Below are positions 1,950-59,267 of a stretch of 64,000 bases of DNA, piece after piece; the first letter of the stretch is position 1; each line of letters opens with the position of its first letter. The notes under the pieces were generated by a model. The model was not told where the DNA came from. It ran no database searches and was given only the letters and a program-made list of their open reading frames with translations. The position numbers were made by a program, and so were the translations under genes. The stretch is from Candidatus Spyradenecus sp. (GTDB lineage Bacteria > Verrucomicrobiota > Verrucomicrobiia > Opitutales > UBA953), in contig JAZSKX010000007.1 in assembly GCA_045535075.1 (NCBI GenBank), positions 64,001-128,000 of the forward strand, written 5' to 3'.

Positions 1950-1996
1950 AAAAAAAGCGTTCCCGTGGCGAAAGTCGCGGGAACGCTTTTTTTTTT
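1950..1996 (+). terminator. Rho-independent terminator whose stem is an inverted pair of the GCGGGAAC motif
   Basis: A7-GCGTTCCCGTGGC-GAAA-GTCGCGGGAACGC-T10 directly after the MFS stop. Confidence 0.9.
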
Positions 1997-2167
1997 GCGA
2001 AAATGCGCCTGTGGCTTTTTCGTTCCCGCGTCGGAAAGCTTCCGTTGTGCATGGGATTTTCATGAATTGAGCTTGCGGATTGCTCTGTTTTTTCGGAAAA
2101 TTCGCTAATCGCCGGTTTTCTAGGCGAGGAATTTTAATTCTGCTTAATCCCAAATTCACTACCGTTT

Positions 2168-5100
2168 ATGAACTCTTGTCCGATTTTCTCTAAGAATTTC
2201 TTGCTCGTTGCAGGGCTTCTTGCGGCCTCTGCGGGAACGCTTACCGCCGTTTCTCCGACGGAAGTTTTCAGCGATCCGTTAGTCAGTTATCAATGGCAAT
2301 GGCATCCGGACCAAGGCGGGATTAACATCGCTGATGTATGGGACAGCGGTGTCACGGGCGAAGGAGTTGTCATCGGGATTGCGGGATATTGGGTCGAACC
2401 GTTTCACGAAGACTTGAATGTTTCGACTTACAACCCGGGAACAAATTGGCAGACGGCGGATTTGAGTCAGGGCTTGAGCTATGACTTTAATCGGCCCGGC
2501 ACATCGCCGAAAGAGACGGACGATCAATTTTATCCGAATGAAAACGCGCACGAAACCGCCGGCGCCGGTATGGCGGGAGCTGTCGGCGGGAACGGAGTCG
2601 GGCTCGTCGGGGCCGCTCCGGGGTCAACGATTGCGGGGTTGCGAGGTCATTATAGAGCCGAGACGTTTTTGTGGGCTTCCGGAGTTGCGGCGGACGGAAC
2701 TTACCTCGGAGAGGCGGAGATTGACGTTAAGAATTTTTACCTGGGTTCGTTTTACGGCTATAGCGGAGATCTTTCGAAAGACTCAGTCGGAGAGTATTTG
2801 AATCTCGCGGCGCAAAACAATGTTGTTTTTACCTGTAGTGCGTATAATTCCCGCGGCGAATCCAACCACCAGTACGGATTCCCGTCGAACTGCGGTTGGT
2901 TGCCGGAAGCCAATCATGCTTCCGTGATCAATGTTGCCGCGACGGACAAGTTCCGGCGCTACGCGAGTTTTTCCGATTACGGCGCCAATGTCTTTATTGC
3001 GGCTCCGGGAAATGCTGTGCCGTCGACGGACAGAACCGGAGATCTCGGCTATACCTCCGGATATTCCTGGGCTCCGAGCGGAAACTACTACTCTTTCGGC
3101 GGGACTTCCGCTGCCGGACCGCTTGTCGCCGGCGTGATGGCTTTGGGAAAGCAGGTTTGCCCGGACATGGATGCGCGTTGGGCAAAGCACGCGCTCGCAT
3201 GGAGTTCCGGACACAACGAAGCTCCGAACATTGATCCCGACGAGTTTCACTACGCATGGGAATCGCCTACCGGATTTTGGCAGAAAAACAACGGCGGCTA
3301 TTGGTTTAATAACAACTACGGTTTCGGCTTAGTCGATCCCGTAAAATTCGTTGATGCAACTCGCGACATTCTCTATACGACGACGGGAACGACGTTTACG
3401 CAGACTTCGGCGGGAATTGAAAAAATCGCTTCAACCGAAACCGCTACGGGAACGTTGCGTACGGCGGAGTTCTCGGTAAAAATCGGCGACGGTGCTCTGG
3501 CGCAAAACATCGAAACCGTTTCCGTGCATGTGGAATTCTCCGATGCCGCTCAGGTCAACTTGGATTTGACAACGCTGAAAGTTACTTTGATCGCACCGGA
3601 TGATGCCAAAAGTATCGTTATTCAAGGTTCGGTCGGCGATGCTTCAACGACGGCGGATGCTAAACACTTTTCCGGATACAAGTTCCTCTCAAATGCGTTT
3701 TGGGGAGCAAGCTACGGAGCCGAAAACTGGCGCGTTCTCGTCGAATATTCCGTCGACGACGGTGTTAATACGACGGATTGGGTTTCCGTAGACTCCGTGG
3801 AATTTACGCAGGGCGAAGTAATTTTTGAAGCCGACGACGTTGCAATCGCGGAATCCGAATCCGTAAATGCGGATATGCTTGCGCTGGAAAGCGGAAGCTT
3901 TTCCGTCGCGGGAACGATGCGTGTTGAAGATTCCGTTTCGATTAACGCGGGAACTTTTGAACTCGCGGAAAGCGGAACGCTCGCTGCCTACACGGGCGGT
4001 GTTTTCGGTGCCGAAAAAGGTGTGAAATACACACAAAACGGCGGGAGTGCGACGATTCGCGGCGACGCAACGTTTAAGCGCGGTGCAACGCTCAATGGCG
4101 GTACGCTCAATCTCTACAAAACGCTTGCCGCGGGAACGGGAATGACTGTTAACGGAGGCACGCTCAATGTCGGCGCAACCGGTACGGAAATTTCGGTCGG
4201 GGCGGCGCTTCCGGTTTACGGAGGTAAGCTTGTTTTGGCGGAAAATGCAATGTTCGGGACTGCTCTGAATGTTGAAGGCGGCTTCGTCGAAATTAACAAC
4301 GGCGCGACGCTCTCGAAAAAAGTCGCTGTCGGCAAAAACGGCGAAGAGGCTATCGGCGGTTCGCTTTCGGCGGCGGGAACGATTGTCGCAAAATCCGGAA
4401 TCGAATTCGCGGGAAAAGCAACGGGAACATTTGCAAAAGATACGGCGATTAAAGAAGGCGGTCTGACGCTTTCCGGCGGAAGTGTTGTTTGGAGCGGGAT
4501 GCTGACGGTTGACGGCGGTATCACAGTCAGCAGCGGTGCGCTGGGAAGTACGGCAGGAAATATTGCCTCTTATGCCGGAAACGTGACAAATGCGGGAACA
4601 CTGGGGATTGCTGCGAATGCTTCCGTGGTCTTTGCTGAAGGCGCAACCTTCATAAACGGAGCAAACAAAATTGATTTGGCGAGCGGCTCTGCGTTGCGCT
4701 TGGAGTCCGGAATCAGCGGAAACAATCTCGCGGGAACTCTGAGCGGTTCGGGAAAACTGACGCTGACGCAAGACACCGATTTCGATGCGAATGTTGATGC
4801 ATTTGCGGGAACGCTTGCAATTGAGAACGGAGTGCTGTCTGTCGGCGCGGGTGCAAATTTGAATCTTGCAACGAATGCTGTTTTGGAACTCGGTGTCTCC
4901 GATGCGGCGGATTGGCTTGCTGTAAACGTCGCAAGCGGCGGAAACGTCAGCTTCGCGAAAGGTTCGGGGTTGATTGTTAATTTTACCGGGGTCTTGGGCG
5001 AAACGTCGGAATTTACCGTTATGAACTGGGCAGACGATGCATCGGTTTCCGGCTTGTTCAACTTGGAGCGCGGCGATGGAATTGCGCTTTATGTCGGCGG

Positions 5101-8100
5101 AGTTGAGTATGCAAACGATAATTGGACCTTTGAGGTTGCCCAAAATTCCCTGAAATTAAAGCTCGATGTCGTTGTCGTCGACATCAGGGAAGCGCAGCAA
5201 AACGCAGTCCTTTCCGATGAGGGCTATATCGCGAATTTTGCCGTGTCGCTCACGGAATACAGCGGGATCGTTTCCGGAAAAGGAGACGTGAATTCCGTCG
5301 GAACATTGGCGTTTTCCGGGAATTTTGCCAATCTTTCCGGCACGGTTTATGTCAACGCCGGAAGTTTCACCATAAAGGAAGCCGCAACGCTTGGGTCCGA
5401 AAATTATGTTGTCGCCGCTGCCGGAACTTTGAGTCTCGAAGGGACTCGTGATTTCGGACAAAGCGTTGCCGGCGCGGGAGCGCTTGTAACCAACGGTAAT
5501 ATTACCCTTAGCGGAGATGCAAGCGCCCACACGGGAACGACGAAAGTTGAATCCGGAACCTTGACGATTGCCCAAGGCGCAAAGCTTGGAACCGGCGCTT
5601 TCAACGTCGCGGGAACGTTGGGATTGGTCGGAGACCGCACGTTCAACAACGCAAGCACCGGAGCGGGAACGCTTGATGTTATTTCCGGAACGACGACGTT
5701 TACGACGAATGTCGGTACCGAAAACTTTGATATTTCCGAAAATGCCGCCGCAAGTTTTGAAGGCACGGCAACCGGTTTTTCCGGGAAACTCACGGGCGCG
5801 GGAACTTTGGCGACCGCGAAGGATTTTGTCTTGTCGGGCGATGCTTCCGGTTTTGAAGGGAAAACTTCCGTCAAGGCGGGAACGTTTACCGTCACCGAAG
5901 CCGCAAGCTTAGGGACCGGAGATTTTGAAGTTGCGGGAACGCTTGCGCTGAAGGGAAATCGCACTTTCGGCAATACGACATCCGGCGCGGGAACACTTAG
6001 TGTTGCTTCGGGAACGACAACGTTCATGAAAAATGTCGGCACTGCAAAACTGGATATTTCCGCAGATGCCGTCGCAAAATTTGATGCCGTTGCCGGATTC
6101 GCGGGAACGCTCACGGGCGCGGGGGCGCTTACGACCGAAAAAGATTTTTCTTTCTCCGGCGACGCTTCCGGATTTAGCGGAAAAACCTCCGTTACGGCGG
6201 GAACGTTCGCCGTCGCCGCCGGCTCGAAATTAGGAAGCGGCGTGTTTGAAGTTGACGGCGTTTTGGCGCTAAGCGGCGACCGAACCTTTGAAAATACGAC
6301 GAGCGGGAAAGGCTTGATTGATCTCGTTTCCGGAACAACCGCTTTTGCAACGGCTGTCGGCGTGGCAAAGTTGGATATTTCCGAAAATGCCGTCGCAAAG
6401 TTTGAAGGCGACGACGCCGGCTTCTCGGGAACACTCACGGGCGCGGGAGCACTGACAACGGCAAAAGATTTTTCGCTCTCCGGCGACGCTTCCGGATTTA
6501 GCGGAAAAACCTCTGTTACGGGGGGGACATTTGCCGTCGCTTCCGGAACCGAATTAGGAACCGGCGATTTTGAACTCGCGGGGAATTTGGATTTGGACGG
6601 GACGCGTCGTTTTTCCAATAAAATTTCCGGCGACGGGGCGCTGGTCGTGCGCGGCGATGTAATATTTGAAGCCGATGCATCGGCGTTTTCCGGGAAAACG
6701 CAAATCGAGCAGGGCGGGAAACTCACGCTCCCGCAATCTTCGGAAATCGGAAGTGAATTTGTCGTTTACGGAGAGTTAAACCTCGAAGGTACGAGGACTT
6801 TTGCCAATACAACGAGCGGAAGCGGAACGATTGCGCTCGCTCCCGCATCGAATCTTGCGTTCGCAAATAATGTCGGAGCAAAAACAATTTCCGTTGCAGA
6901 AGGAGCGACACTTCGAGGCGGAGTTACGATGACTTACGGTGCAGGATCGAGAATCGTGATTGCCGGAGAATTGCAGCTCAATCTTGATAAGGGGGAAACC
7001 GTCGTACTCAATGGCGGGCGCGCGGTCCTTGAAACTTCGTCGTCTTTGAATTTCCTCACGAAAAAACCGGTGGCAATGAAATTGCGAGACGAAACCGGAG
7101 TCGACAAATTGGCGGACGGCGAGACGGTTTCGATTTTCACGGACGGCATCGTCGAAGGCGATGTGCTTGGCTTCCTTGAAAACGACGCAATTCTGTCGGA
7201 CTTTGCCGCGCGTTCCATGGTGGTTTACGATCTTTCACACGGCTTAAATGTTCGTGTCGCTTCCGGAATTGCCGAAAATGCGGATGTCGACACCGCCGGC
7301 TTGAGCGAAAGCTATTTGGCGTGGAGCATGAAAGATGCGCGAAATACTTTCGACTCCATTCAAAGCGGATTTTGGAACATCGACGATCCGGTACTTTCCG
7401 GCGGGAACGATCCGCTCTTGCGGGCGATTTTGGGCGGAGATTCCTCTGCGGCGCGCGCTGTGCTCGACCGCCTTTCCCCGAAAAGCTACGCCGCAATGGT
7501 GGCGATGGCGGCGGAGTCTTTCCACTCGGACGTTCGCAGTGTCGCCTCCCGATTGGAGCAGCGCCGCTACGACAGATTTGCGGAAAATGCCCGTTGGGAA
7601 TTCTTCGCACAAGCGCAATTCAGTTCATTTGAAACCGACACGAAAACGGATTCGGCGATGTTTGACTTCGATACGAACGGCGTGTTCGCGGGAGCTGATT
7701 ACAAAACAAGCGCCGAAACGATTGTCGGTATCGCCTTCGGAGCTGACAACGGCGAGGCGAAAATCCACAACGGCGGCGGCAAAATCGAATCTTCCGATCT
7801 TCGTTTTACGGCTTATTTCGGAAAAACATTCAACGACCGTTTTTATCTGAACGCGGGAACGCAACTCGGCTATGCAAATTACGATGTAAAACGCAAAACC
7901 GACTACGGGAACGCCCGAGGTGATACGCACGGGCTGAGCGGCGGCGTTTTTGCCGAAACCGGCGCACTGCTGACTTTGTCCGAAAAGGAAAATATCTTCG
8001 CAATGCCCTATATCGGTTTGGCATACACGCATTCTCAAATTGACGGATTTGAAGAAGACGGAACCGAAAAAGCGTTCGATGCGGATACCATTAAGGGCGA

Positions 8101-8416
8101 CAGCCTGCGTGCGCGTATCGGGTGCGGCTTCTCGTGGGGATTTGACCTCGCGGGAACGGATTGGCGCCTGGGATTGGATCTCGCATATTCGCACGATTTC
8201 CTCGGCGACGAAGTCGATGTCGAAGTTATGTCGAAGGGCGGAGATTTTATTGCGGAAACGGCAAAAGCGCTTCCGGAAGATGTTTTCTCCGCCGGGCCGA
8301 CGCTGAACGTAAATCTCAATTCGACCATGAGCATTTACGGCGGCTACACGTTTAGCACGGGAACGGACGCTTATACGAATCACAGCACCAATCTCGGTTT
8401 CCGTATGCGTTTCTAA
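2168..8416 (+). CDS. Autotransporter with N-terminal S8 (kexin/furin-like) peptidase domain, P-domain-like region, repeated beta-helical passenger and C-terminal beta-barrel
   Basis: Signal peptide; GINIADVWDSGVTGEGVVI, HET, FSDYG, GTSAAGPLVAG and NNNYGFGLVD subtilase motifs; G/T/A-rich repeats; barrel ending in ...GFRMRF. Confidence 0.88.
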   Translation: MNSCPIFSKNFLLVAGLLAASAGTLTAVSPTEVFSDPLVSYQWQWHPDQGGINIADVWDSGVTGEGVVIGIAGYWVEPFHEDLNVSTYNPGTNWQTADLSQGLSYDFNRPGTSPKETDDQFYPNENAHETAGAGMAGAVGGNGVGLVGAAPGSTIAGLRGHYRAETFLWASGVAADGTYLGEAEIDVKNFYLGSFYGYSGDLSKDSVGEYLNLAAQNNVVFTCSAYNSRGESNHQYGFPSNCGWLPEANHASVINVAATDKFRRYASFSDYGANVFIAAPGNAVPSTDRTGDLGYTSGYSWAPSGNYYSFGGTSAAGPLVAGVMALGKQVCPDMDARWAKHALAWSSGHNEAPNIDPDEFHYAWESPTGFWQKNNGGYWFNNNYGFGLVDPVKFVDATRDILYTTTGTTFTQTSAGIEKIASTETATGTLRTAEFSVKIGDGALAQNIETVSVHVEFSDAAQVNLDLTTLKVTLIAPDDAKSIVIQGSVGDASTTADAKHFSGYKFLSNAFWGASYGAENWRVLVEYSVDDGVNTTDWVSVDSVEFTQGEVIFEADDVAIAESESVNADMLALESGSFSVAGTMRVEDSVSINAGTFELAESGTLAAYTGGVFGAEKGVKYTQNGGSATIRGDATFKRGATLNGGTLNLYKTLAAGTGMTVNGGTLNVGATGTEISVGAALPVYGGKLVLAENAMFGTALNVEGGFVEINNGATLSKKVAVGKNGEEAIGGSLSAAGTIVAKSGIEFAGKATGTFAKDTAIKEGGLTLSGGSVVWSGMLTVDGGITVSSGALGSTAGNIASYAGNVTNAGTLGIAANASVVFAEGATFINGANKIDLASGSALRLESGISGNNLAGTLSGSGKLTLTQDTDFDANVDAFAGTLAIENGVLSVGAGANLNLATNAVLELGVSDAADWLAVNVASGGNVSFAKGSGLIVNFTGVLGETSEFTVMNWADDASVSGLFNLERGDGIALYVGGVEYANDNWTFEVAQNSLKLKLDVVVVDIREAQQNAVLSDEGYIANFAVSLTEYSGIVSGKGDVNSVGTLAFSGNFANLSGTVYVNAGSFTIKEAATLGSENYVVAAAGTLSLEGTRDFGQSVAGAGALVTNGNITLSGDASAHTGTTKVESGTLTIAQGAKLGTGAFNVAGTLGLVGDRTFNNASTGAGTLDVISGTTTFTTNVGTENFDISENAAASFEGTATGFSGKLTGAGTLATAKDFVLSGDASGFEGKTSVKAGTFTVTEAASLGTGDFEVAGTLALKGNRTFGNTTSGAGTLSVASGTTTFMKNVGTAKLDISADAVAKFDAVAGFAGTLTGAGALTTEKDFSFSGDASGFSGKTSVTAGTFAVAAGSKLGSGVFEVDGVLALSGDRTFENTTSGKGLIDLVSGTTAFATAVGVAKLDISENAVAKFEGDDAGFSGTLTGAGALTTAKDFSLSGDASGFSGKTSVTGGTFAVASGTELGTGDFELAGNLDLDGTRRFSNKISGDGALVVRGDVIFEADASAFSGKTQIEQGGKLTLPQSSEIGSEFVVYGELNLEGTRTFANTTSGSGTIALAPASNLAFANNVGAKTISVAEGATLRGGVTMTYGAGSRIVIAGELQLNLDKGETVVLNGGRAVLETSSSLNFLTKKPVAMKLRDETGVDKLADGETVSIFTDGIVEGDVLGFLENDAILSDFAARSMVVYDLSHGLNVRVASGIAENADVDTAGLSESYLAWSMKDARNTFDSIQSGFWNIDDPVLSGGNDPLLRAILGGDSSAARAVLDRLSPKSYAAMVAMAAESFHSDVRSVASRLEQRRYDRFAENARWEFFAQAQFSSFETDTKTDSAMFDFDTNGVFAGADYKTSAETIVGIAFGADNGEAKIHNGGGKIESSDLRFTAYFGKTFNDRFYLNAGTQLGYANYDVKRKTDYGNARGDTHGLSGGVFAETGALLTLSEKENIFAMPYIGLAYTHSQIDGFEEDGTEKAFDADTIKGDSLRARIGCGFSWGFDLAGTDWRLGLDLAYSHDFLGDEVDVEVMSKGGDFIAETAKALPEDVFSAGPTLNVNLNSTMSIYGGYTFSTGTDAYTNHSTNLGFRMRF
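5470..6700 (+). repeat. About 3.5-4 intragenic tandem repeats of ~321-324 bp (~107-108 aa) in the autotransporter passenger
   Basis: SGDAS(G/A)..G.T unit recurs at ~5510, 5834, 6155 and 6479; the last two share the identical run TCCGGCGACGCTTCCGGATTTAGCGGAAAAACCTC. Confidence 0.85.
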
Positions 8417-8451
8417 ATCGGGATTCTGAAAAATCAGTCTCGTTCCGAAGA

Positions 8452-8486
8452 GCGTTCCCGCGGGTGTTTCTGCGGGAACGTTTTTT
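8452..8486 (+). terminator. Terminator built from the inverted motif pair
   Basis: GCGTTCCCGCGG-GTGTT-TCTGCGGGAACG-T6. Confidence 0.85.
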
Positions 8487-8565
8487 CTCTGCGCTATGCG
8501 AATTCGCTTGCCAATTGAAGTTTATTCCGTGAAGGTTTTTTGATAAATTTAACGTTTCTTTTTTT

Positions 8566-11193
8566 ATGAAGTCTTTGGTTATCGCAGAAAAGCCGTCCGT
8601 TGCAAAAGATATTGCGAAGGTTTTGAAGGTTCCCGCAAAGGGAGATATTTTCGAAAATAACGAATACGTCATTTCCTCGGCAGTCGGGCATTTGGTGTCT
8701 CTTTGCGATCCGGACGATTATGATGCGAAGTTGAAACGTTGGTCGCGTAAGACGCTTCCGATTCTTCCGAAAACTTTTAAACTCAAGGCTTCCGCCGAGC
8801 GCGGCGCGAAAGATCAGTTTTTAAAACTGAAAAAACTCATGGAACGCGCAGACGTCGATTGCGTTATCAACGCGTGCGACGCCGGGCGGGAAGGAGAATT
8901 GATTTTTGCTTACATTTACGATCTCGCCGGTTGCCGAAAGGCAACTAAGCGCCTTTGGCTGACAAGCATGACGCCGACTGCCGTGCGCGAGGGCTTTGAA
9001 AATCTTCTCGCCGGAGAAGAAAAATTCAATCTCTGCGAAGCCGCACGTTGCCGAGCCGAATCCGATTGGCTTATCGGCATGAACGGAACGCGAGCCGTTA
9101 CTTTGCGGACGAGCCCGGCGGGAAAAGGACAGGTGGCGACGGTCGGTCGCGTGCAAACCCCGACGCTCTCGCTGATTGTTCAGCGCGAACTCGATATTCG
9201 TAATTTTGACCCGAAGGCGTATTGGCGCATTGTCGGCGAATTCGGACTTGCCGCGGGAACGTACGAAGGCGTTTACCAACGTCCGGATTTTAAAAAATCC
9301 GACAAAAACGACGGGAACGCCGAAGCCGGCGACAAAGCTGACCGCATTTGGAACAAAGAGCAGGCGGAAGCGATTTTTGAAGCCTGCAAAAATGCGGGAA
9401 CGGGAACGATTACCGAAGAGAAAAAACACACAACCGAAGCTTGCCAGCGCCTTTACGATTTGACGACGCTTCAGCGCGAAGCCAACAAACGTTTCGGGTT
9501 CCCGGCGACGAAAACGCTTCAAATCGCACAAGCTCTCTACGAAAAACACAAGGCAACCACCTATCCGCGAACCGATTCGCGGGCGCTTCCCGAAGATTAT
9601 ATCGGCACTTGCTACCGTACGCTCGAAGCCCTCGAAGTGCGCGGAAACGTCGGAAAATTTGCCGCGCGCGTTTGCGAAAATAAATGGGTACGCCCGAACA
9701 AACGCATCTTCAATAACAAGGAAATTTCCGATCACTTTGCGATTATTCCGACCGACCAGCCGCCCAAAAGCGCTCTTTCCGCCGACGAGGAAAAAATCTA
9801 TGACATGGTCGTTCGTCGATTTATCGCCGTGTTTTTTCCTCCTGCGGAGTTCGACGTAACAACGCGTATGACTTGCGTTGCCGGGCATAATTTTAAAACC
9901 GAAGGAAAAGTTCTCGTCGTTCCCGGCTGGAAAGAAATCTACGGGCGCGAGGAAGGGAAAGCCGAAGATTCGCTTCCGGCGGTAACGGATGCGGACGGCG
10001 TGCCCGCGCAGGCGAAAGTCCTTGAAGTGCAGTGCCAGGAAGAATCAACAAAACCGCCGGCGCGCTACACCGAAGCGACGCTCCTGGCGGCGATGGAAAG
10101 CGCCGGAAAATTCGTCGAAGACGAAGAGCTCGCTCTTGCAATGAAAGAGCGCGGGCTCGGAACGCCGGCAACGCGTGCGGGAATCATTGATCATTTAATT
10201 AAAACAAAATACGTCGATCGAGCCGGGCGTGATTTGGTGCCGACGATCAAGGCGGAACAGCTGATGGCGTTTCTCAAGGTAACGGATGTCGAAATTCTCA
10301 CCAGCCCGGCGATGACCGGCGATTGGGAATTCCGCTTGCAGGAAGTCGCCGAAGGCAAGCGTTCCCGTAAGGAATTCATGGAAGGCATTGTTTCGCTTGC
10401 GACGCAAATCGTCGAAAAAGTCGGCTCCGACGGCGGCGACGATCAGTGGAACGAAACCGACATTATTTCTCCGACGGACGGAAAGGTTTTGCTCGAAAAT
10501 TATCGACTTTATCGTTCGCAGGATTCGGTTGTCGTAGGCAACGGCCGTTCTTTTCCGGCTCTTGTTATTTATAAAAATGCAAGCGGACACAACCTGACGA
10601 TTGAGGAGGTTCGGACGCTTGTTTCGGCGGGTGAAATCGGTCCGATCGAGGACTTTAAATCTCGATTCGGCAAACCGTTTACGGCGACACTCAAGCTCGA
10701 AAAAAATGAAAGCGGACTTTTGCGTTCGACCTTTGTTTTCCCGGAACGCGAAGGCGATGCGGCGGCAGCGGCGTTCGATTATTCCACGGGAACGGTCATC
10801 GGCGAATGCCCTGTAACCAAACTCAAAATTTACGACACGCCGAACGGTTATCGCCCCAATCCGGAAGAAGCGAAAGCGCAAAAAAATACTCCGTTCTCGA
10901 TGGCAAAGAAAATGCTCGGAGCCGAAATTACGCTCGAGCAAGTGCAAAAACTTTTGACCGAAGGCAAAACGGATTTAATCCAAGGATTTATTTCCAATCG
11001 TACGAAACGTCCGTTCGACGCGTTTTTGTGTTTGGGAAAAAATTCGACGAAGGTGCGTTTCGAGTTCCCGCCGCGTGAAGCCAAGCCGAAAGCGGAAAAG
11101 AAAAAAACACCCGCCAAGCGCAAGCTCATCAAAAAGCCGGCGAGCGGCGCGGGAATCAAAGCCAACGACGATACCGACATTCAAGTCGGATAA
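8566..11193 (+). CDS. topB: DNA topoisomerase III (type IA) with C-terminal repeats
   Basis: IAEKPSVA, DAGREGELI, GRVQTPTL, catalytic TYPRTD, GLGTPATRA; C-terminal GF.S..KPF.A.L repeats. Confidence 0.93.
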   Translation: MKSLVIAEKPSVAKDIAKVLKVPAKGDIFENNEYVISSAVGHLVSLCDPDDYDAKLKRWSRKTLPILPKTFKLKASAERGAKDQFLKLKKLMERADVDCVINACDAGREGELIFAYIYDLAGCRKATKRLWLTSMTPTAVREGFENLLAGEEKFNLCEAARCRAESDWLIGMNGTRAVTLRTSPAGKGQVATVGRVQTPTLSLIVQRELDIRNFDPKAYWRIVGEFGLAAGTYEGVYQRPDFKKSDKNDGNAEAGDKADRIWNKEQAEAIFEACKNAGTGTITEEKKHTTEACQRLYDLTTLQREANKRFGFPATKTLQIAQALYEKHKATTYPRTDSRALPEDYIGTCYRTLEALEVRGNVGKFAARVCENKWVRPNKRIFNNKEISDHFAIIPTDQPPKSALSADEEKIYDMVVRRFIAVFFPPAEFDVTTRMTCVAGHNFKTEGKVLVVPGWKEIYGREEGKAEDSLPAVTDADGVPAQAKVLEVQCQEESTKPPARYTEATLLAAMESAGKFVEDEELALAMKERGLGTPATRAGIIDHLIKTKYVDRAGRDLVPTIKAEQLMAFLKVTDVEILTSPAMTGDWEFRLQEVAEGKRSRKEFMEGIVSLATQIVEKVGSDGGDDQWNETDIISPTDGKVLLENYRLYRSQDSVVVGNGRSFPALVIYKNASGHNLTIEEVRTLVSAGEIGPIEDFKSRFGKPFTATLKLEKNESGLLRSTFVFPEREGDAAAAAFDYSTGTVIGECPVTKLKIYDTPNGYRPNPEEAKAQKNTPFSMAKKMLGAEITLEQVQKLLTEGKTDLIQGFISNRTKRPFDAFLCLGKNSTKVRFEFPPREAKPKAEKKKTPAKRKLIKKPASGAGIKANDDTDIQVG

Positions 11194-11227
11194 TGTTTCC
11201 GAATAAAATAGTTAATTGCTTGTTGGC

Positions 11228-12397
11228 ATGAGCGTTCGTATTTGCGAACTCGATTCGGAGAATTATTTCCGGAAAATTGCCGCGCACTACGGGAGCGACG
11301 AAAATATTTTTTTGCTCAATCCGACATGGAGCGGCGCTCAACGCTCCGTTGCCGAAACCTTGATAGGTCAATTTGAAAAAGCTTCTCCGGATGTTCGCGG
11401 AAAAATCTTTATCGCCAGCGGCGGGAGCGGCGGAAAAATCCGCTTCGTTGCCCACACGCAGAAAAGTTTGGAAGCCAGCGCGCATGCACTGATTCGGCAT
11501 TTGAAAATTTCTGCGGGAACGGCGTTTAACTGCTTTTCCTGCCTGCCGCCGTGGCATATCAGCGGATTGATGACTTATGTCCGTTCCCGTGTATCCGGCG
11601 GAAAATTACATATCGCTTCCGATACCGGCTTTCATAATGCGTCTTCTTTGGAAAATTTTCGAGATTTTGCAGGAGAATTTTGGACAGTCTCTCTCGTTCC
11701 TACGCAATTGATGCGTATTTTTGATTTGCCCGGAGGCGTGAATTGGTTGCGACAATTTGATTTTATTTTGCTCGGAGGGGCTGCCGTTCCCGTCGGACTG
11801 ATTGAACGGGCTCAAGCGGAAAAATTGAATTTCGGAATCGGATACGGCATGACGGAGACGGCATCGCTCGTGAGTCTTTGGAAAAACGGAGAAGGCGAAG
11901 AAATCGCGGGAACGACGCTTCCGCACGCGAAAATCACGCTTTCCGAAGCTGATTCCCGAATCCGCATTGCGGCTGATTCATTGGGCGAAACGCTGGACGA
12001 AAGCGGCGTTTTACTTCCGAATCCGAACGGTATTTTTGAAACCAACGACGAAGGGTGTTTCAACAAATCCGCTCGTCTTCGGGTGCTTGGGCGCGCGGAT
12101 CGTTACATCAACTCGGGCGGCGAAAAAATCGATCCGAAACTTGTCGAAAACGCCTTGCGCGATGCGGGCGCGAAAGAGGTTTTGGTGGCAGGAGAGCCTG
12201 ATGCCGAGTGGGGACAACGCGTTGTAGCGCTTTTGGTGTCGCCGTTCCCGCAGGACACGATCTGCCGCTTGCGTGAAAAACTTCCTTCGTGGATGTTGCC
12301 CAAACGCCTTATTCCCGTTCCCGTACTTCCGATTGATTCTAAAGGAAAAGTCGATTGCATCGCATTAGATAGGATTTTATCGGAGAAAAATTCTTAA
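11228..12397 (+). CDS. AMP-binding enzyme, O-succinylbenzoate-CoA ligase-like (MenE-like)
   Basis: SGGSGG, LPPWHISGLM, SLVPTQL, GYGMTET, GRADRYINSGGEKI, PDAEWGQ; ATG at 11228 taken as start. Confidence 0.75.
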   Translation: MSVRICELDSENYFRKIAAHYGSDENIFLLNPTWSGAQRSVAETLIGQFEKASPDVRGKIFIASGGSGGKIRFVAHTQKSLEASAHALIRHLKISAGTAFNCFSCLPPWHISGLMTYVRSRVSGGKLHIASDTGFHNASSLENFRDFAGEFWTVSLVPTQLMRIFDLPGGVNWLRQFDFILLGGAAVPVGLIERAQAEKLNFGIGYGMTETASLVSLWKNGEGEEIAGTTLPHAKITLSEADSRIRIAADSLGETLDESGVLLPNPNGIFETNDEGCFNKSARLRVLGRADRYINSGGEKIDPKLVENALRDAGAKEVLVAGEPDAEWGQRVVALLVSPFPQDTICRLREKLPSWMLPKRLIPVPVLPIDSKGKVDCIALDRILSEKNS

Positions 12398-12454
12398 AAT
12401 TTTCCGGATGCCGCTCTCCGATAAGCGTATTCTTTGTTTCCGGAAAGACCTCAC

Positions 12455-12489
12455 AAAAAAAGCGTTCCCGTGAAAAGGAACGCTTTTTT
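12455..12489. terminator. Bidirectional terminator between convergent menE-like and argF, derived from the motif
   Basis: A7-GCGTTCC-CGTGAAAA-GGAACGC-T6. Confidence 0.85.
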
Positions 12490-12506
12490 GCGAAAGTTTA
12501 TTTTTA

Positions 12507-13463: not shown

Positions 13464-13627
13464 GTTCCGGCTGAATTGAATTAAAAATAAAAGAAAGAAT
13501 TGAATCTTTGCGGAAAGAACCACGCAATTCAATTTTCGACAATTTGCGATGAAGAGCGCGAATACGCGGAAGGGAATTTTTATTTCTTTCCGGAAATTGG
13601 TAGATAAAAAAAGCAATTTCCCCTAGA

Positions 13628-14914: not shown

Positions 14915-14985
14915 AATCTCGAACGGTTTCTATCGGCGTAAAATGCTCGGCGGAAGCGGAATTCCCCATTCGCGGGAACGCACAT

Positions 14986-15014: not shown

Positions 15015-15022
15015 ATGAGAAA

Positions 15023-15637: not shown

Positions 15638-15655
15638 AACACTCTCGACAACATC

Positions 15656-16633: not shown

Positions 16634-16654
16634 TCCGTAACGGAGAATTTTACA

Positions 16655-17067: not shown

Positions 17068-17109
17068 AAAACAGCCGGTTTTAAGAATGTTAAATCCGGC
17101 TGTTTTTTT
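17068..17109. terminator. Bidirectional terminator between rbfA and sdaAA (not motif-based)
   Basis: AAAACAGCCGG...CCGGCTGTTTTTTT. Confidence 0.8.
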
Positions 17110-20678: not shown

Positions 20679-20720
20679 AAAAAAGCGTTCCCGTGACGAT
20701 CTCGCGGGAACGCTTTTTTT
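20679..20720 (+). terminator. Terminator built from the inverted motif pair
   Basis: A6-GCGTTCCCGTGA-CGATC-TCGCGGGAACGC-T7. Confidence 0.9.
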
Positions 20721-22620: not shown

Positions 22621-22661
22621 AAAAAAGCGTTCCCGTGACGATCTCGCGGGAACGCTTTTTT
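22621..22661. terminator. Bidirectional terminator built from the inverted motif pair
   Basis: A6-GCGTTCCCGTGA-CGATC-TCGCGGGAACGC-T6 between convergent genes. Confidence 0.9.
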
Positions 22662-23463: not shown

Positions 23464-23498
23464 AAAAAAACTCCGGGACGCGAACGTTCCGGAGTTTT
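23464..23498 (-). terminator. Terminator after the OmpA/Pal gene
   Basis: AAAACTCCGG...CCGGAGTTTT hairpin with an A7 tract (U-tract on the minus strand). Confidence 0.75.
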
Positions 23499-48690: not shown

Positions 48691-49190
48691 ACAAGCTGAT
48701 CCAGGTCCGCAGTTCTCCGATTCACGGGAACGGCGTTTTTGCTCTAAAGCCGATTCCCGCGGGAACTTGCGTAGCGGAATACCGGGGCGAAATTATTTCC
48801 CAAGCCGAGCTTGAGCGCCGGGAGAAGTTGCGCGCCGAACGAAAGGAGCAGGGCGAAAACGTGCCGGTTTATTATTTTGAAGTCGGAGACGGAATTTTTA
48901 TCGATGCGACCGAAGTTAAGGAGGAAAATCCGGCACGCTACATCAATCACGCTTGCGATGAAAATTGTGAGGCGATTTGGAATGCGCGGGAACGACGCAT
49001 GGAAATTGTTACGATTCGAGATATTAAGGTCGGTGAAGAATTGTCTTTTGACTACGGATTCGAGTTGGCGGGATTTTTTGAGCATCCGTGTCGGTGCGCG
49101 TCTAAAAATTGTTGCGGTTACATCGTCGCAAAGCCTTTACGCCCCGCGCTCATGCGTAAGCTTGCCCGCCATGCTCGAGCCGGAAAATAA
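48687..49190 (+). CDS. SET-domain protein-lysine methyltransferase with post-SET Cys motif
   Basis: SPIHGNGVFA, EYRGE, ARYINHACDENC, EELSFDYG, CRCAS.NC. Confidence 0.92.
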   Translation: MNKLIQVRSSPIHGNGVFALKPIPAGTCVAEYRGEIISQAELERREKLRAERKEQGENVPVYYFEVGDGIFIDATEVKEENPARYINHACDENCEAIWNARERRMEIVTIRDIKVGEELSFDYGFELAGFFEHPCRCASKNCCGYIVAKPLRPALMRKLARHARAGK

Positions 49191-49228: not shown

Positions 49229-49264
49229 AAAAAAAGGCGTTCCCGCAGGTCAAGGGAACGCTTC
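49229..49264 (+). terminator. Hairpin derived from the motif pair after the SET gene
   Basis: A7-GGCGTTCCC-GCAGGTCAA-GGGAACGCTT; the U-tract is weak on + and strong on -. Confidence 0.55.
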
Positions 49265-49908: not shown

Positions 49909-49983
49909 GCGGCTGTCGTATAACGGCTATTATGTGACCTTCCCAAGGTTGAGACGAGGGTTCGACTCCCTCTAGCCGCACCA
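49909..49983 (+). tRNA. tRNA-Gly (anticodon CCC) with encoded CCA
   Basis: GCGGCTG/TAGCCGC acceptor stem, TTCCCAA anticodon loop, GAGGG-TTCGACT-CCCTC T-arm, ACCA end. Confidence 0.93.
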
Positions 49984-50137: not shown

Positions 50138-50809
50138 GACATACTCAATGAGCTAACGGCAGAAATTGAAAATGGCACTATCTCAACTGCAAAGGGATTG
50201 CGCGAGCTTGCTTCTTCACTGCGGATGCAGAAAGGAGGAAGTGCCATATCTTATTATCGCATTAAAGAATGGAAACGATTTGCGCGATATGAGTCAGCTG
50301 ATAATTCAAACGTTGGACGAAACGGGGAAACTTCCTACGAGGGAGAGAATTATCAGAATGGTGGCGTTTATGGTGAACAACCCAGAATAACTTCGCTTCA
50401 ACACAACGGCGTAATTTACGGCTACTTTGACCCTGTGCGCAGGGAGTTGCACTTGAACAAGGACTTTGCGGATTTTGACACACCTATTCACGAGTGGACG
50501 CACGGTTGGTGGGCGTGGCTCAAAGGCGAAGACCCGCGAATGATTGAACGCATTGTCGAGCTGATGAAGCAGACAAAAGAGTATCAACGTTTCCGTATGG
50601 AAGCGATGACCGACAAGAAGTCTGTTTATCACGGGCTTAGCGAAGAGGAACTTGCCGAAGAGGTGTTTGCTTGCCTTACCGGAAAGCGCGGCGAGGACAT
50701 CATGGAGCAAGAGGGGCTTGCGATGTGGACGAAAGGGCAGACGCGAGAGCCATTTCAGCTTCAAGTCAATTGGTCGAAGCCGATTTTTATAAATTCGGGT
50801 AGCCTTTAG
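50138..50809 (+). pseudogene. Fragment of a large polyvalent protein with a zincin-like metallopeptidase (HExxH) domain
   Basis: Open frame with no convincing start; GVIYGYF...LHLN....DTPIHEWTH.WW and EEVFA.LTG; atypical codons; no copy of the host motif. Confidence 0.6.
50172..50390 (+). CDS. Small hypothetical protein nested in an alternative frame of the metallopeptidase fragment
   Basis: 72-aa ATG-initiated, protein-like amphipathic ORF (MALSQLQRDCASLL...NNPE). Confidence 0.45.
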   Translation: MALSQLQRDCASLLLHCGCRKEEVPYLIIALKNGNDLRDMSQLIIQTLDETGKLPTRERIIRMVAFMVNNPE

Positions 50810-51200
50810 GGGCGATAAGCCGGATTCTGTGCCGTGTGCCGCTTGCGCGGGAACACGGTCGCATTCATTTCTCTAACCGCGGAAATTTGCGTTCCCGCGA
50901 TTTCGCCTTGCGGCGATGCGACAGACCCGTGAGCATCGGACGGGCAACCCGCTCACCTATTTTGTCTTGCACCGGATTGGGTTTGTCGCGCCTCGTTCGT
51001 TGCCGTTCGAGCGGTGAGCTCTTACCTCGCCGTTTCACCCTTACCGGCGTTGCCGCCGGCGGTTTGTTTTCTGTGACACTTTCCGTCAACGCGCCTTGCG
51101 ACGCGCCGCCCTCGCTTTCACGAGGAATCCTGCCCTGCGGTGTCCGGACTTTCCTCCCGGAAACTTGCGCTTCCGAGCGAATGCGTGCACCCTAAAGACT
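50801..51200 (-). ncRNA. rnpB: RNase P RNA, bacterial type A
   Basis: Minus strand GAGGAAAGTCCGG, GGGTGAAACGGCGAGGTAAGAGC and ACAGAATCCGGCTTAT; P1 pairing AGTCTTTAGGG/CCCTAAAGGCT defines the ends. Confidence 0.95.
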
Positions 51201-53903: not shown

Positions 53904-55733
<1,830 letters not shown>

Positions 55734-55792
55734 TCAAATATCGCGTTCCCGTGATAAATCGAATTTTGCCGCGCGGGAACGCGGGACGGAGA

Positions 55793-55985
55793 TTGACAAA
55801 GCAGGGCGGGAACGATTGAATTAGAAAAATTTATGGCAAACGCGGCTCTCCATGAAAAGAATTTCATGAACGCTTCCGGAAACGAAGCGCCCGCCATGCA
55901 GTTTTCAGCTCAAACTTTTTCAGGTTTGAGCTTTTTTATGATTTTCTCAAAACACAGCTCCGAACTAACCTTTTTTCTCATTTAG
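55793..55985 (+). promoter_or_regulatory. carB leader: TTGACA box, multi-hairpin structure, intrinsic terminator (55907-55937) and 50-codon leader ORF (55833-55985)
   Basis: AGCTCAAAC...GTTTGAGC-T6 hairpin ~60 nt upstream of the carB ATG on the same strand. Confidence 0.55.
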
Positions 55986-55996
55986 AAAGCATTACT

Positions 55997-58900
55997 ATGT
56001 CTATACGCGACGATATTAAAAAAGTCATGATCATCGGCTCCGGTCCGATTGTAATCGGGCAGGCCTGCGAATTTGACTACTCGGGAACGCAAGCGTGCAA
56101 AGCGCTCCGCGAATGCGGCTACGAAATCGTGCTCGTCAACTCGAACCCGGCAACGATTATGACGGACCCGACCGTTGCCGACGTTACTTACATCGAGCCG
56201 CTCAACGAAGAACGCCTCGAGCAAATCATCGCCAAAGAACGCCCGGACGCGCTTTTGCCGAATCTCGGCGGACAAACCGGCTTGAATCTCGCCATTGAGC
56301 TCAACAAAAAAGGAATTTTGGAGAAATACGGCGTCAAGGTTATCGGCGTAAACCTCGAAGCCATCGAGCGCGGCGAAGACCGTCTTATTTTCAAAGAAAC
56401 GATGTCGCGCATCGGCATCGACATGCCGCGCAGCGATATTGCCTACACGGTTGATGAAGCGGTGAAAATTTCCGAAAAACTCGGCTTCCCGCTCGTCGTC
56501 CGCCCGGCTTACACGATGGGCGGCGCCGGCGGCGGGCTTGTCTACAATATGGACGAGCTCAAAACCATCGTCGCGCGCGGCTTGCAGGCTTCGATGACGA
56601 GCCAATGCCTCATCGAAGAATCCATCCTCGGTTGGGAGGAACTCGAAGTCGAAGTCGTTCGCGACTCGACCGGAGCACTCATTTCCGTTTGTCTCATCGA
56701 AAACGTCGATCCCGTCGGCGTGCACACGGGCGACAGCTTCTGCACGGCACCGATGATGACCGTTCCCGCGGACGTTCAGGCGGAGCTTCAGCGGCAGGCG
56801 TGGAAAATTATCGACACGATCGGCGTTATCGGCGGCACGAACGTCCAGTTCGCGCGCAACCCGAAAGACGGGCGCATCGTCATCATCGAAATCAACCCGC
56901 GCACCTCGCGTTCGTCCGCGCTCGCGTCGAAGGCAACGGGCTTCCCGATCGCACTCATTTCGGCAAAACTTGCAAGCGGCATGACGCTTTCCGAAATCCC
57001 GTATTGGCGCGACGGCTCGCTCGACAAATACACGCCGTCGGGCGATTACGTCGTTGTCAAATTTGCGCGTTGGGCATTTGAAAAATTTAAAGGCGTTCAG
57101 GACAAGCTCGGCACGCAGATGAAGGCGGTTGGCGAAGTCATGAGCATCGGCAAAAACTACAAGGAAGCTTTCCAAAAAGCGATTCGTTCGCTCGAAAACG
57201 GGCGCATGGGCTTGGGCTTTGCGGCGGATTTTAATTCCAAAACGAAGGAAGAACTTCTCGAAATGCTGCGCGAAGCCAACAGCGAACGCCATTTCGTGAT
57301 TTACGAAGCCTTCCGCAAGGGCGCGACGATTGAGGAAATTCAGGCGAAAACGCAAATGAATCGCTGGTTCCTCGAACAGGCGAAAGAACTCGTCGAGCTC
57401 GAAGAAAAACTTTTGGAAAGCAAGGGCAGCGTTCCCGCAGACGCGCTTTTGATTCAGGCCAAAAAAGACGGTTTCGCGGACGCGTATTTGGCAAAAATCC
57501 TCGGTGTTCCCGAAAAAGAAATTCGCGAAAAACGCATCGCGCTCGGCGTGGTCGAACGCTGGGAAGCCGTTCCCGTCAGCGGTGTCGAAAACGCCTGTTA
57601 CTATTTCTCAACGTATGCGGACAGCGTTCCCGTGACGGAACTTCCCGCGAGCACGAAGAAAAAAGTTATGGTGCTCGGCGGCGGACCGAACCGCATCGGG
57701 CAAGGCATTGAGTTTGACTACTGCTGCTGCCACGCCGCGATGGCGCTGCGCCGCATGGGCTACGAAACCATCATGGTCAACTGCAACCCGGAAACGGTTT
57801 CGACCGACTACGATACGTCTGACAAACTTTATTTCGAGCCGCTCACGCTCGAAGACGTGCTCGCGATTTACGAACACGAAAAACCGGAAGGCGTGATTGT
57901 GCAGTTCGGCGGGCAAACGCCGCTCAACCTCGCGCGCAAACTCGCAGAAGCCGGCGTGAAAATTCTCGGCACGAGTATCGACACCATCGATACGGCGGAA
58001 GACCGCGATCTTTTCCGCCTGATGATGCAAAAGCTCGAAATCCCGATGCCGGAAGCGGGCATGGCGATCAACATTGAGCAGGCTCTCGAAATCGCCCACA
58101 AAGTCGGCTACCCGGTGATGATTCGTCCGTCCTTCGTGCTCGGCGGGCGCGGTATGGAAGTTGTTTACGACGACGCGGCACTCAAAGAATACGTCAGCAA
58201 GGCAATCGGCGTGACGGAAGATGCGCCGCTTCTCATCGACCGCTTCCTGCAAAACGCGCTTGAATGCGAATGCGACGCGCTTTGCGACGGGAACGACGTT
58301 TTCATTCCTTCCGTTATGGAACACATCGAGCTCGCAGGTATTCACTCCGGCGACTCGGCTTGCGTCATTCCGCCGGTGCACATTCCCGCGAAGCAATACG
58401 CGGATATCGTCGATTACACGCGCAAAATCGCACACGAGCTGAAAGTCGTCGGCTTGATGAATATGCAATACGCCATCGAAAACGGCAAAGTTTACGTTAT
58501 CGAAGCGAACCCGCGCGCCTCGCGTACGGTGCCGCTGGTTTCCAAGGTTTGCAATATTCAAATGGCAGGCGCGGCAACGGAACTCATGATGGGCAAAAAG
58601 CTTGAAGAGCTGAATTTGAAGCCCTTCGTCGCGGGAACGCACTACGGCGTGAAAGAAGCCGTTTTGCCGTTTGACAAATTCCCGGAAGTCGACCCCGTTC
58701 TCGGGCCGGAAATGCGCTCCACGGGCGAAGTGCTCGGCATCGCGCCGGACTTCGGTACCGCGTTTTTCAAGGCGCAGGAAGCCGCGGGAACGCAGCTCCC
58801 GACCGAAGGCACGGTTTTGATTACGATCGCCGAAAAGAACGAACAGGCGCTCGAACTCGGACGCGGCTTCGTCAAGCTCGGCTTCAAAATCAAAGCAACG

Positions 58901-59209
58901 GCGGGAACGTATGATTTCTATACGAAAAACGGTATCGCGTGCGAATTGATTAAAAAACAGCACGAAGGACGCCCGAATATCGTGGACGGCATCGTCAACC
59001 GGGAAATTTCGCTCATCGTCAACACGCCGGTCGGCAAACGCTCGGTTATCGACGATTCCTACATCCGCAAAAACGCCATCAAGCTCCGCGTGCCGTATTT
59101 CACGACACTCGCGGCGGCACTGGCAACGGTGCAGGGCATCGCCGCCGTCAAGGCGGGAACGGTCGATGTCGATTCGCTCCAAGCCCACCACGGCAAATTA
59201 AAAGCTTAA
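55997..59209 (+). CDS. carB: Carbamoyl-phosphate synthase large subunit
   Basis: [30 protein letters not shown], duplicated ATP-grasp halves, C-terminal MGS domain. Confidence 0.97.
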   Translation: [1070 protein letters not shown]

Positions 59210-59225
59210 AGCTTAAAAAATGTAC

Positions 59226-59267
59226 AAAAAAACGTTTCCGCGACTTTGATCGCGGGAACGTTTTTTT
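59226..59267. terminator. Bidirectional terminator between carB and skp built from the motif pair
   Basis: A7-CGTTTCCGCGA-CTTTGA-TCGCGGGAACG-T7. Confidence 0.9.

Follow-up and report, generated by a model that had tools for sequence, protein, structure and literature searches.

Probable intrinsic terminators with stems of a hyper-abundant, lineage-specific word in a bacterium of the Verrucomicrobiota

Introduction

Seven hairpins in the 64-kb window (the whole stretch of DNA that was analysed) have stems made of two opposed copies of one short motif, GTTCCCG. They raise the questions of whether these structures end transcripts, why their stems should consist of the same word and whether that word is a signal for DNA uptake. 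Uptake and its receptor have been demonstrated in Neisseria, and USS pairs reportedly occur in terminators of the Pasteurellaceae, as described by Smith et al. in 1995 and Kroll et al. in 1992. REP/BIME elements with RAYT transposases are known from enterobacteria and pseudomonads, and REP-like hairpins at 3' ends stabilise mRNA in enterobacteria.

Motif Hairpins in the Window

Direct reading of the DNA located all seven hairpins, and a further wide-loop pair, where the earlier note had placed them (Table 1). The seven have minimum free energies of -16.7 to -32 kcal/mol with z between -3.8 and -7.7, 0/200 shuffles being as good, and a T tract lies on the strand that needs it at 6/7 sites, the exception being 49229-49264. 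The proposed plan of A tract, stem and T tract applies to most of the seven, with minor defects in 12455-12489, 8452-8486 and 49229-49264. A terminator role of the last for the upstream + strand gene is doubtful because it lacks a T tract on that strand and is badly oriented. The wide-loop pair does exist, but it lies in a divergent spacer without tracts and is therefore no terminator by position; a search of Rfam gave no family match for its region. The hairpins at 20679-20720 and 22621-22661 belong to a tandem duplication that comprises a Na/Pi-cotransporter gene and its terminator and in which identity stops just past the T tract.

Table 1. Motif hairpins of the window and two terminators without the motif, with their gene context and predicted folding.
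Position	Feature	Strand	Gene context	Folding	Tracts and arms
1950..1996	motif-pair terminator	+	after MFS sugar-transporter gene (153-1931)	stem 1957-1986; dG -24.9 on +, -17.0 on -; MFE -32, z -7.7	A7 5' of stem, T10 3' of stem
8452..8486	motif-pair terminator	+	after subtilase autotransporter gene (2168-8416)	dG -20.7, z -6.5	T tract present, A tract absent
12455..12489	two-way terminator	.	between convergent AMP-binding enzyme (+) and ornithine/aspartate carbamoyltransferase (-)	MFE -18.3, z -5.0	3' arm shortened, just GGAACGC
20679..20720	motif-pair terminator	+	after Na/Pi-cotransporter paralogue 1 (18890-20611)	z -7.5	
22621..22661	hairpin identical to 20679..20720	.	after paralogue 2 (20859-22553); gene on other side (22676-23446, - strand) convergent with it	dG -21.1 on +, -18.5 on -	
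49229..49264	motif hairpin	.	after SET-domain gene (48687-49190)	z -3.8	A tract; T tract on - strand only, none on +
55743..55782	wide-loop motif pair	.	divergent spacer, thiC (-) / carB (+)	z -3.6, 2/200 shuffles as good	neither A nor T tract
59226..59267	motif-pair terminator	+	after carB (55997-59209)	z -5.9	5' arm GTTTCCG, giving a U.G pair
17068..17106	terminator without motif, comparison	.	between rbfA (+) and serine dehydratase gene (-)	dG -18.3 and -15.2	A-tract/stem/T-tract plan like motif hairpins; stem unrelated
23471..23494	terminator without motif, comparison	.	between - strand genes	dG -12.4 on -, -16.4 on +	

A generic terminator scan of positions 1-20000 of the window gave 44 hits against 40.6 in shuffles, hence no excess, and missed the hairpins at 1957 and 8453. 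In two metatranscriptome runs, the low-depth contigs covered short coding pieces at a depth of 2-6 and offered no usable ends; the contig ends that fell at 20679, 22621 and 22661 represent other copies of the hairpin.

Abundance and Distribution of the Word

The motif is far more frequent than chance would give. Within the window, GTTCCCG occurs in 219 copies against 14.6 expected and GTTCCCGCG in 72 against 2.3 expected, and the genome of 1.95 Mb holds 5159 copies of CGTTCCCG. The density of CGTTCCCG is 2.51 per kb in coding and 3.65 per kb in intergenic DNA, with 4292 of the 5159 copies located in genes, where all six frames are used. Genomes of the genus carry 552-7762 copies each, compared with 8-493 in genomes from 12 further genera of the order, in which the counts are no higher than those of a reversed-word control. 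The hyper-abundance is lineage-specific and extends to both strands, within and outside genes, as is expected of an uptake sequence.

An abundant word that forms palindromes could also belong to mobile REP/BIME-type elements spread by a RAYT (Y1/TnpA-REP) transposase, with terminator activity being incidental, and a search for such a transposase had been proposed in the earlier note. The genome does encode two Y1_Tnp genes, a few motif hairpins lie within repeated segments of 90-146 nt and two triplet clusters of motif hairpins are found; a repeated element of 150 nt with a motif hairpin at its end matched no Rfam family. Both Y1 genes, however, have another hairpin at their flanks (ATAACCGCAGGT...ACCTGCGGTTAT), which is present in 13 copies only, and the REP explanation therefore fails. 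Against it also stand the arms, which are mainly single intragenic copies, the near absence of shared loops (202 distinct ones in 206 hairpins), the flanks, which in most pairs do not align past the tracts, and the arrangement of the hairpin loci, 185 of 194 being single, with 7 doublets, 2 triplets and no BIME arrays. We regard a REP/RAYT origin as extremely improbable.

Placement at Gene Ends

Genome-wide, the hairpins with the GTTCCCG arm first (FR, the reverse order being RF) are placed as terminators would be. They occupy 73/186 convergent, 106/672 tandem and 11/199 divergent spacers; for 186 of them with dG <= -12, a stop codon on the same strand precedes the hairpin by no more than 150 nt, and the median distance from the stop codon to the first arm is 31 nt. 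The tracts follow the direction of the genes. Between tandem genes on the + strand, a T tract is present in 48/70 and an A tract in 26/70 cases, and between those on the - strand an A tract in 35/60 and a T tract in 21/60; both tracts are present in 46/80 convergent and 2/18 divergent cases. At least one side bears a tract in 147/206 intergenic FR pairs, compared with 7/58 RF pairs; a T tract, taken as at least 6 T among the 9 nt that follow, abuts the stem in 114 of the 206 FR pairs, and 59 have neither tract. The hairpins thus show three of the features by which intrinsic terminators are recognised, namely a stable G+C-rich hairpin, a T tract after the stem and placement at gene ends along the direction of transcription.

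The earlier note had suggested computing the fraction of terminators that contain the motif. With our own predictor, which like the gene calls relies on crude scripts written by us, a hairpin with dG <= -12 and a T tract follows 314 of 1498 genes, and 172 of these 314 gene-end terminators (55%) contain the exact 8-mer, 164 as FR pairs. A 400-kb sample of genome G016 gave 34/70 terminators with the word. Rho is encoded in the genome, and so the hairpins are not the sole route of termination.

Hairpins at such sites could have the main task of shielding mRNA 3' ends against exonucleases, or could mark sites of processing, instead of releasing the polymerase. Their place, and the RNA-level selection described below, would fit such a role equally well, but a stabiliser needs no U tract, and the T tracts abut the stem in more than half of the FR pairs; moreover, the A tracts on the opposite side suit two-way termination between convergent genes. 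A mainly protective or processing function is in our view highly unlikely.

Order and Spacing of the Arms

The statement that the GTTCCCG arm always comes first was borne out as a strong preference in the window, in the genome and in every related genome searched. Intergenic pairs genome-wide are in the GTTCCCG…CGGGAAC order in 231 cases and in the reverse order in 64, whereas intragenic pairs show the two orders equally (397 vs 400). Among neighbouring exact 7-mers at most 20 nt apart, the genome has FR 213, RF 50, FF 86 and RR 61. FR exceeds RF in 19/19 searched genomes of the genus, and the 12 other genera of the order have 0-2 pairs. The differing loops were likewise confirmed, with 202 distinct inner sequences among the 206 intergenic hairpins. 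The spacing of the arms ranges from 3 to 20 nt, with a sharp mode of the inner length at 12 nt (65/206).

Several candidate causes of the arm order were considered. A-rich sequence extending the word on its 5' side, as the source of both order and tails, was rejected because solitary copies have no A-rich flank: at positions -10 to -2, A accounts for 23-29% in the solitary copies of coding DNA (3585) and for 26-32% in those of intergenic DNA (434), and it reaches 39-72% only in the 380 intergenic copies with an FR partner. The explanation given for Neisseria thus fails here. A general pyrimidine-first bias of terminators is a weak candidate, as non-motif terminators lean only slightly in the same direction (5' arm 0.54 pyrimidine; C-G 253 vs G-C 174 pairs, with a coding background of 55% C-G). 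Thermodynamics was dismissed by reasoning, both orders forming the same helix, and a DNA-level bias at the birth of the pairs is unlikely because the intragenic arm orders are equal. The available part of the TERMITe paper (PMC12207403) holds nothing on arm asymmetry.

Selection on RNA and Exactness of the Stems

Changes compatible with G.U pairing had been noted in one of the two arms, and this observation is right in substance, although the wobble is mostly a T.G at the first pair inside the 7-mer and less often affects the arm itself. When one-way hairpins are oriented according to the T tract, their non-Watson-Crick stem positions are G.U in 83 and A.C in 24 cases (p 9e-9); orientation by gene direction gives 109 vs 42, and two-way hairpins 45 vs 35. 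G.U wobbles favour the transcribed strand, which indicates selection on RNA. At the same time, the stems keep to the word itself, beyond mere complementarity. Among 410 intergenic terminator-like hairpins, motif-identical pairs number 7/7 in 137, 6/7 in 19 and 5/7 in 18, with four or fewer in the rest, and single compensated variants occur in only 5.

The exactness of the stems and the sharp mode of the inner length would both fit pairs that are DNA-level signals first (double uptake sites, cruciforms or sites for dimeric proteins), with tracts and position being secondary. A bias of G.U to the transcribed strand is, however, impossible for a signal in duplex DNA, and the variable arm spacing, the tracts that track gene direction, the equal intragenic arm orders and the unrelated terminators that a sister species has in the same place also argue against it. 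We consider this alternative very unlikely.

Turnover Between Species

Gene ends matched at the protein level between genomes G000 and G016 provide a comparison of terminators at corresponding sites. For 21 gene ends of G000 that carry an FR terminator, the orthologous end in G016 has an FR terminator in 9 cases, an unrelated terminator in 9 and none in 3, and at several of these gene ends the C-termini are 98-100% identical. Direct alignment of the flanks to 400 kb of G016 spans only 10 of 410 hairpins. The end of the carbamoyltransferase gene is followed across species by FR hairpins with differing loops or by stems without the motif; its counterparts in outgroups have a strong hairpin within 160 nt at 0/65 loci and are therefore uninformative on what preceded the motif hairpin. 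Such exchanges of word-built and unrelated hairpins at the same gene ends in sister species amount to a natural experiment on terminator turnover.

Proposed Mechanism and the Question of DNA Uptake

Position, tract orientation, strand-specific G.U wobbles and the unrelated terminators that take the place of the hairpins in the sister species strongly support the terminator reading that the earlier note had put forward. It is very likely that the hairpins are intrinsic terminators, many of them two-way, and that their stems are a word kept hyper-abundant by a force at the DNA level. Transcribed, a site would read GCGTTCCCG(Y)(G), then a short loop rich in A and T, then (C)(R)CGGGAACGC; this RNA is predicted to fold into a stem of 11-13 bp, and the U tract behind the stem would free the transcript. 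An A tract 5' of the stem would become a U tract for transcription from the opposite strand. That transcripts are actually released at these sites is what we infer from this arrangement.

The stems would be made of CGTTCCCG because a force on DNA keeps this word hyper-abundant on both strands, along the whole chromosome and throughout the genus, so that two opposed copies arise easily; selection for termination would then retain the pairs with the right place, order and tract context. The cause of the abundance is likewise a matter of inference, and our best guess is that a bias in DNA uptake or recombination may be the force. The findings sharpen the question of what keeps the word abundant.

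We propose tentatively that CGTTCCCG could be a true self-DNA uptake signal of gut Opitutales, which would be the first outside Proteobacteria, with its opposed pairs forming more than half of the intrinsic terminators and keeping a strict order without an A-rich extension. If so, termination, or a factor that reads the hairpin, would be sensitive to which arm leads; we know of no such sensitivity for DUS or USS terminators. The genome encodes ComEC, DprA, a secretin, three T2SSE ATPases and six prepilin-type proteins, a predicted set that would only be permissive for word-biased uptake, and these competence and pilus-type families are widespread in control genomes too. No clear ComEA match was found in the genome, the best HHH_3 match lying within an 805-aa frame. 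Terminators made of the word are by themselves no proof of DNA uptake.

Literature searches on DNA uptake sequences with Verrucomicrobia returned matches that were unrelated by title, those on Spyradosoma concerned taxonomy or surveys by title, and the listed matches to the word strings look like primers and other unrelated uses.

Comparison With Known Systems

In Neisseria, inverted DUS pairs (GCCGTCTGAA...TTCAGACGGC) are found in intrinsic terminators (Kingsford 2007, PMC1852404), and the figures in the available part of that study are close to ours. The earlier note had taken the hairpins as independent support for the uptake interpretation; the numerical likeness to Neisseria upholds this in part, but the support is circumstantial, since any word that is hyper-abundant on both strands supplies ready hairpin arms, and the A-rich extension is absent. 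In both systems, the word is genus-specific and spread over both strands of the whole genome, and A/T tails follow gene direction. According to the same part of the study, 54-57% of gene-end terminators contain the word in Neisseria, compared with 172/314 (55%) here, the hairpins are most frequent between convergent genes (94 in 268 regions there, 73/186 here) and one arm order strongly prevails (226 to 5 there). At 8 nt, the word described here is shorter than the DUS as it is presented there, and its density of 2.6 per kb is about three times as high. Only 3 intragenic hairpins are given for Neisseria, whereas here genes contain most copies and many chance pairs; the arm order is ascribed there to A-rich sequence that extends the word on its 5' side, in unpaired copies too (PMC1852404), and that is absent from solitary copies here. 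The host also belongs to a different phylum, the Verrucomicrobiota (order Opitutales).

The Pasteurellaceae resemble our case in that opposed copies of an abundant word, the USS (AAGTGCGGT), form stems downstream of genes in the same preferred order, as far as the available part of the source covers them (Kingsford 2007, PMC1852404). There, however, the USS occurs in just 16-29% of terminators, the preferred order prevails less strongly (50 to 25) and a long AT-rich 3' extension is present (PMC1852404), which the word here lacks. REP/BIME elements share with the motif hairpins that they are abundant extragenic palindromes able to end transcripts, but here the arms are mostly intragenic singles, the loops are unconserved, arrays are absent and the Y1 transposases go with another hairpin.

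Word-built terminators, so far described for the Neisseriaceae and Pasteurellaceae, thus appear to have evolved in an unrelated phylum as well, and to the same extent (~55%). We contend that inspecting the composition of terminator stems could be an inexpensive way to find such words from the sequences of uncultured bacteria.

Word abundance and hairpin sites

The window spans G000:C8:64001-128000, and its genome (G000; 1.95 Mb, 18 contigs, about 52% G+C) carries 5159 copies of the 8-mer CGTTCCCG, here called the word, whose context consensus is no wider than (G)CGTTCCCG(C/T)(G/A). In the window, chance would give the 7-mer core GTTCCCG 14.6 times and GTTCCCGCG 2.3 times; the observed counts are 219 and 72, respectively. 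The word occupies all six reading frames, with CGGGAACG on the sense strand 2581 times vs 1717 for CGTTCCCG, and its commonest frame genome-wide is xCG GGA ACG (1463 copies). This frame, Ala/Thr-Gly-Thr, was read by hand in the subtilase autotransporter gene, where many of the copies compared lie at multiple-of-three spacing. A perfect 14-bp palindrome of two arms with no gap, GTTCCCGCGGGAAC, has 21 copies in the genome, mostly inside genes among the matches listed.

Direct reading of the sequence found the inverted pair GTTCCCG and CGGGAAC at all eight sites of the earlier note (seven hairpins and a wide-loop pair), all of which fold far better than their own shuffles; seven lie directly 3' of genes, named here from Pfam. 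At dG <= -12, the intergenic hairpins of the window comprise six motif pairs and two without the motif. The two units of the Na/Pi-cotransporter tandem duplication are identical up to the end of the T tract and diverge immediately beyond it. The wide-loop pair, for which Rfam gave no family, sits inside the thiC leader, and no TPP riboswitch was recognisable in this leader by Rfam gathering score or at E <= 1, which is unusual for thiC. The ORF overlapping the RNase P gene is probably not a real gene.

Features of the window and related loci in the same genome (positions without a contig prefix are window coordinates)
Feature	Position	Strand	Context	Remark
Hairpin	1950-1996		after MFS transporter gene
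Subtilase autotransporter gene	2168-8416			2082 aa
Hairpin	8452-8486		after subtilase autotransporter gene	no A tract
Hairpin	12455-12489		after AMP-binding enzyme gene, convergent with carbamoyltransferase gene	3' arm shortened
Tandem duplication	18890-22661		Na/Pi-cotransporter (PhoU-domain) gene, 3' spacer and terminator
Hairpins	20679-20720, 22621-22661		after two Na/Pi-cotransporter paralogues	identical pair
Hairpin	49229-49264		after SET-domain gene	no T tract on + strand
tRNA gene	49909-49980	+
RNase P RNA (class A)	50800-51197	-
ORF	50836-51195		overlaps RNase P gene
thiC leader	55683-55996	-		314 nt
Wide-loop pair	55743-55782		divergent thiC/carB spacer	no tracts
Hairpin	59226-59267		after carB
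Y1_Tnp gene	G000:C10:516-854	+	outside window
Y1_Tnp gene	G000:C14:6715-7062	-	outside window
Intergenic repeat, ~150 nt	G000:C1:128719-129294, G000:C8:242525-243369		outside window	five copies

Word-built pairs as probable terminators

Gene calls came from our own ORF and codon-bias script, a crude one that gave 1498 genes at 88% coding. Adjacent exact 7-mers at most 20 nt apart stand in the order GTTCCCG then CGGGAAC (FR) 213 times and in the reverse order (RF) 50 times, against 86 and 61 same-direction neighbours (FF, RR), with the FR excess at gaps of 6-15. With one mismatch allowed there are 628 FR and 464 RF pairs, near-equal within genes (397 and 400) and 231 vs 64 outside them; the order bias therefore exists only between genes, and it is there that the GTTCCCG arm mostly comes first, in line with the earlier note. 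Of the word's 867 intergenic copies, 332 belong to FR hairpins.

The claim that these pairs form a family of terminators is well supported by their placement, their tracts and their share of predicted gene-end terminators. FR hairpins occupy 73/186 convergent, 106/672 tandem and 11/199 divergent spacers, with a median of 31 nt from stop codon to first arm, and their A and T tracts follow gene direction. At least one side bears a tract in 147/206 intergenic FR pairs vs 7/58 RF pairs.

Tracts at intergenic FR pairs by spacer type
Spacer	A tract	T tract	Both
Tandem, + genes	26/70	48/70	21/70
Tandem, - genes	35/60	21/60	17/60
Convergent	58/80	55/80	46/80
Divergent	4/18	4/18	2/18

Sixty-five hairpins have an inner part of 12 nt, and their consensus, A6 (G/A)C GTTCCCG YGR N6 YCR CGGGAAC G(C/T) T6, gives a stem of about 12 bp and a 6-nt A/T-rich loop. 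Our own predictor, which looks for a T tract and a single hairpin (ViennaRNA fold) ending 0-2 nt before it, placed a gene-end hairpin at dG <= -12 behind 314 of the 1498 genes; the best one behind each gene contained the exact 8-mer in 172 cases (55%) and was an FR pair in 164 (52%), the counts at dG <= -15 being 159 and 152 of 252. FR pairs make up just 25 of 1090 hairpins of equal strength inside genes. The word is found in 34 of 70 predicted gene-end terminators in a 400-kb sample of a sister species (G016). Rho is also encoded in G000.

Selection on the RNA

Wherever the transcript of one strand forms a G.U pair, that of the opposite strand has an A.C mismatch. Among 80 one-way hairpins oriented by their sole T tract, the non-Watson-Crick stem positions are G.U in 83 cases and A.C in 24 (binomial p 9e-9), in substance as in the earlier remark on G.U-compatible changes; the counts are 45 vs 35 in 67 two-way hairpins. 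Orientation by gene direction gives 109 vs 42, and 44 vs 11 at the first inner pair alone. A duplex-DNA signal cannot be the source of such an asymmetry between strands, which indicates selection on the RNA.

Turnover and exactness of stems

At the carbamoyltransferase gene end, some species of the genus have FR hairpins of differing loop and length, others carry unrelated stems (e.g. GACAGGCA…TGCCTGTC) and some have nothing. Gene ends were matched between G000 and one sister genome (221 ends, the 400 kb of G016). The 21 ends with an FR terminator in G000 have FR in 9, an unrelated terminator in 9 and none in 3, and the 45 with an unrelated terminator have FR in 3, a decayed FR in 2, an unrelated one in 17 and none in 23; several swaps lie behind C-termini of 98-100% identity. 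Word-built and ordinary terminators are thus interchangeable, and we regard this as the best indirect evidence of function at hand.

In 410 intergenic terminator-like hairpins, the best 7-bp window had all 7 pairs identical to the motif duplex in 137, 6 in 19, 5 in 18 and no more than 4 in 236, a two-peaked distribution with intermediates almost absent; single compensated variants number only 5. This points either to a force that restores the exact word or to young hairpins that keep being generated from the abundant word.

Mobile-element alternative

An alternative is that the motif hairpins are REPs, or copies of one element. A few hairpin pairs share segments of 90-146 nt; most all-against-all alignments cover the tract and arms alone (30-59 nt). 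Inner sequences are distinct in 202 of 206 hairpins, as the earlier remark that loops differ would have it, and 185 of 194 loci are single. A search for a REP-associated transposase did find two genes for IS200/RAYT-like Y1_Tnp proteins (about 150 aa). Both are bounded on either side by hairpins of another form, ATAACCGCAGGT...ACCTGCGGTTAT, with just 13 copies in the genome; upstream of the C10 gene lies a tandem array whose unit measures about 144 nt. This small REP/RAYT-like system has no relation to the abundant word, and we rejected the reading of the motif hairpins as REPs or as copies of one element.

The intergenic repeat of about 150 nt (83-96% identity among copies) ends in a motif-pair hairpin in each copy, with a nearly constant loop (TGGAATGATTTG). 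Rfam gave no family for this repeat, which may represent a family of small RNA genes.

Genus-wide pattern and the uptake reading

FR exceeds RF in 19/19 genomes of the genus (e.g. 186/46), which as kin are not independent, and the margin narrows in the densest genomes with many pairs overall (184/138). In 12 other genera of the order the number of pairs is 0-2, and outside the genus the word falls to the level of a reversed-word control. Within the genus the count ranges from 552 to 7762: four low-density species (G001, G002, G013 and G014) have 1347-1385 copies, or 552 in G014, and the other 15 have 5159-7762. In these four natural low-dose controls the bias is still strong (80/10, 87/8, 85/8 and 15/0).

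The word is genus-specific and present on both strands and in all six frames, and at the genomic level it resembles an uptake sequence. The genome encodes ComEC, DprA, a secretin, three clustered T2SSE ATPases and six prepilin-type proteins, families that control genomes show to be widespread; no clear ComEA was found in it. Outside Neisseriaceae and Pasteurellaceae, uptake sequences are not known to be established. Literature searches found no paper describing the word as a bacterial signal, the string matches listed looking unrelated, and none that, judged by title, ties DNA uptake sequences to Verrucomicrobia. The terminators had been offered as independent support for uptake; their pattern fits it, but would arise for any word abundant on both strands. 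On genomic grounds the word may be a DNA uptake signal, a possibility we hold tentatively and somewhat on the doubtful side.

Comparison with Neisseria and Pasteurellaceae

A dominant arm order is also reported for N. meningitidis (226 to 5) and H. influenzae (50 to 25), where it is ascribed to an A-rich 5' extension of the word found even in unpaired copies (Kingsford et al., 2007, PMC1852404). That explanation does not apply to the word of G000: A stands upstream of solitary copies (3585 coding and 434 intergenic) at 23-32%, against a background of 24%, and of 380 intergenic FR-partnered copies at 39-72%. Terminators without the motif show no more than a weak order bias of the same sign, both orders form the same helix and the orders are equally frequent in genes.

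In other respects the likeness to Neisseria is close. According to the same paper, the DUS occurs in 54-57% of the best gene-end terminators of Neisseria and 16-29% of those in Pasteurellaceae are word-built, tail-to-tail regions are richest in hairpins, and A and T tails track gene direction (Kingsford et al., 2007, PMC1852404). The word-built terminators of G000 match every quantitative feature of Neisseria drawn from that account.
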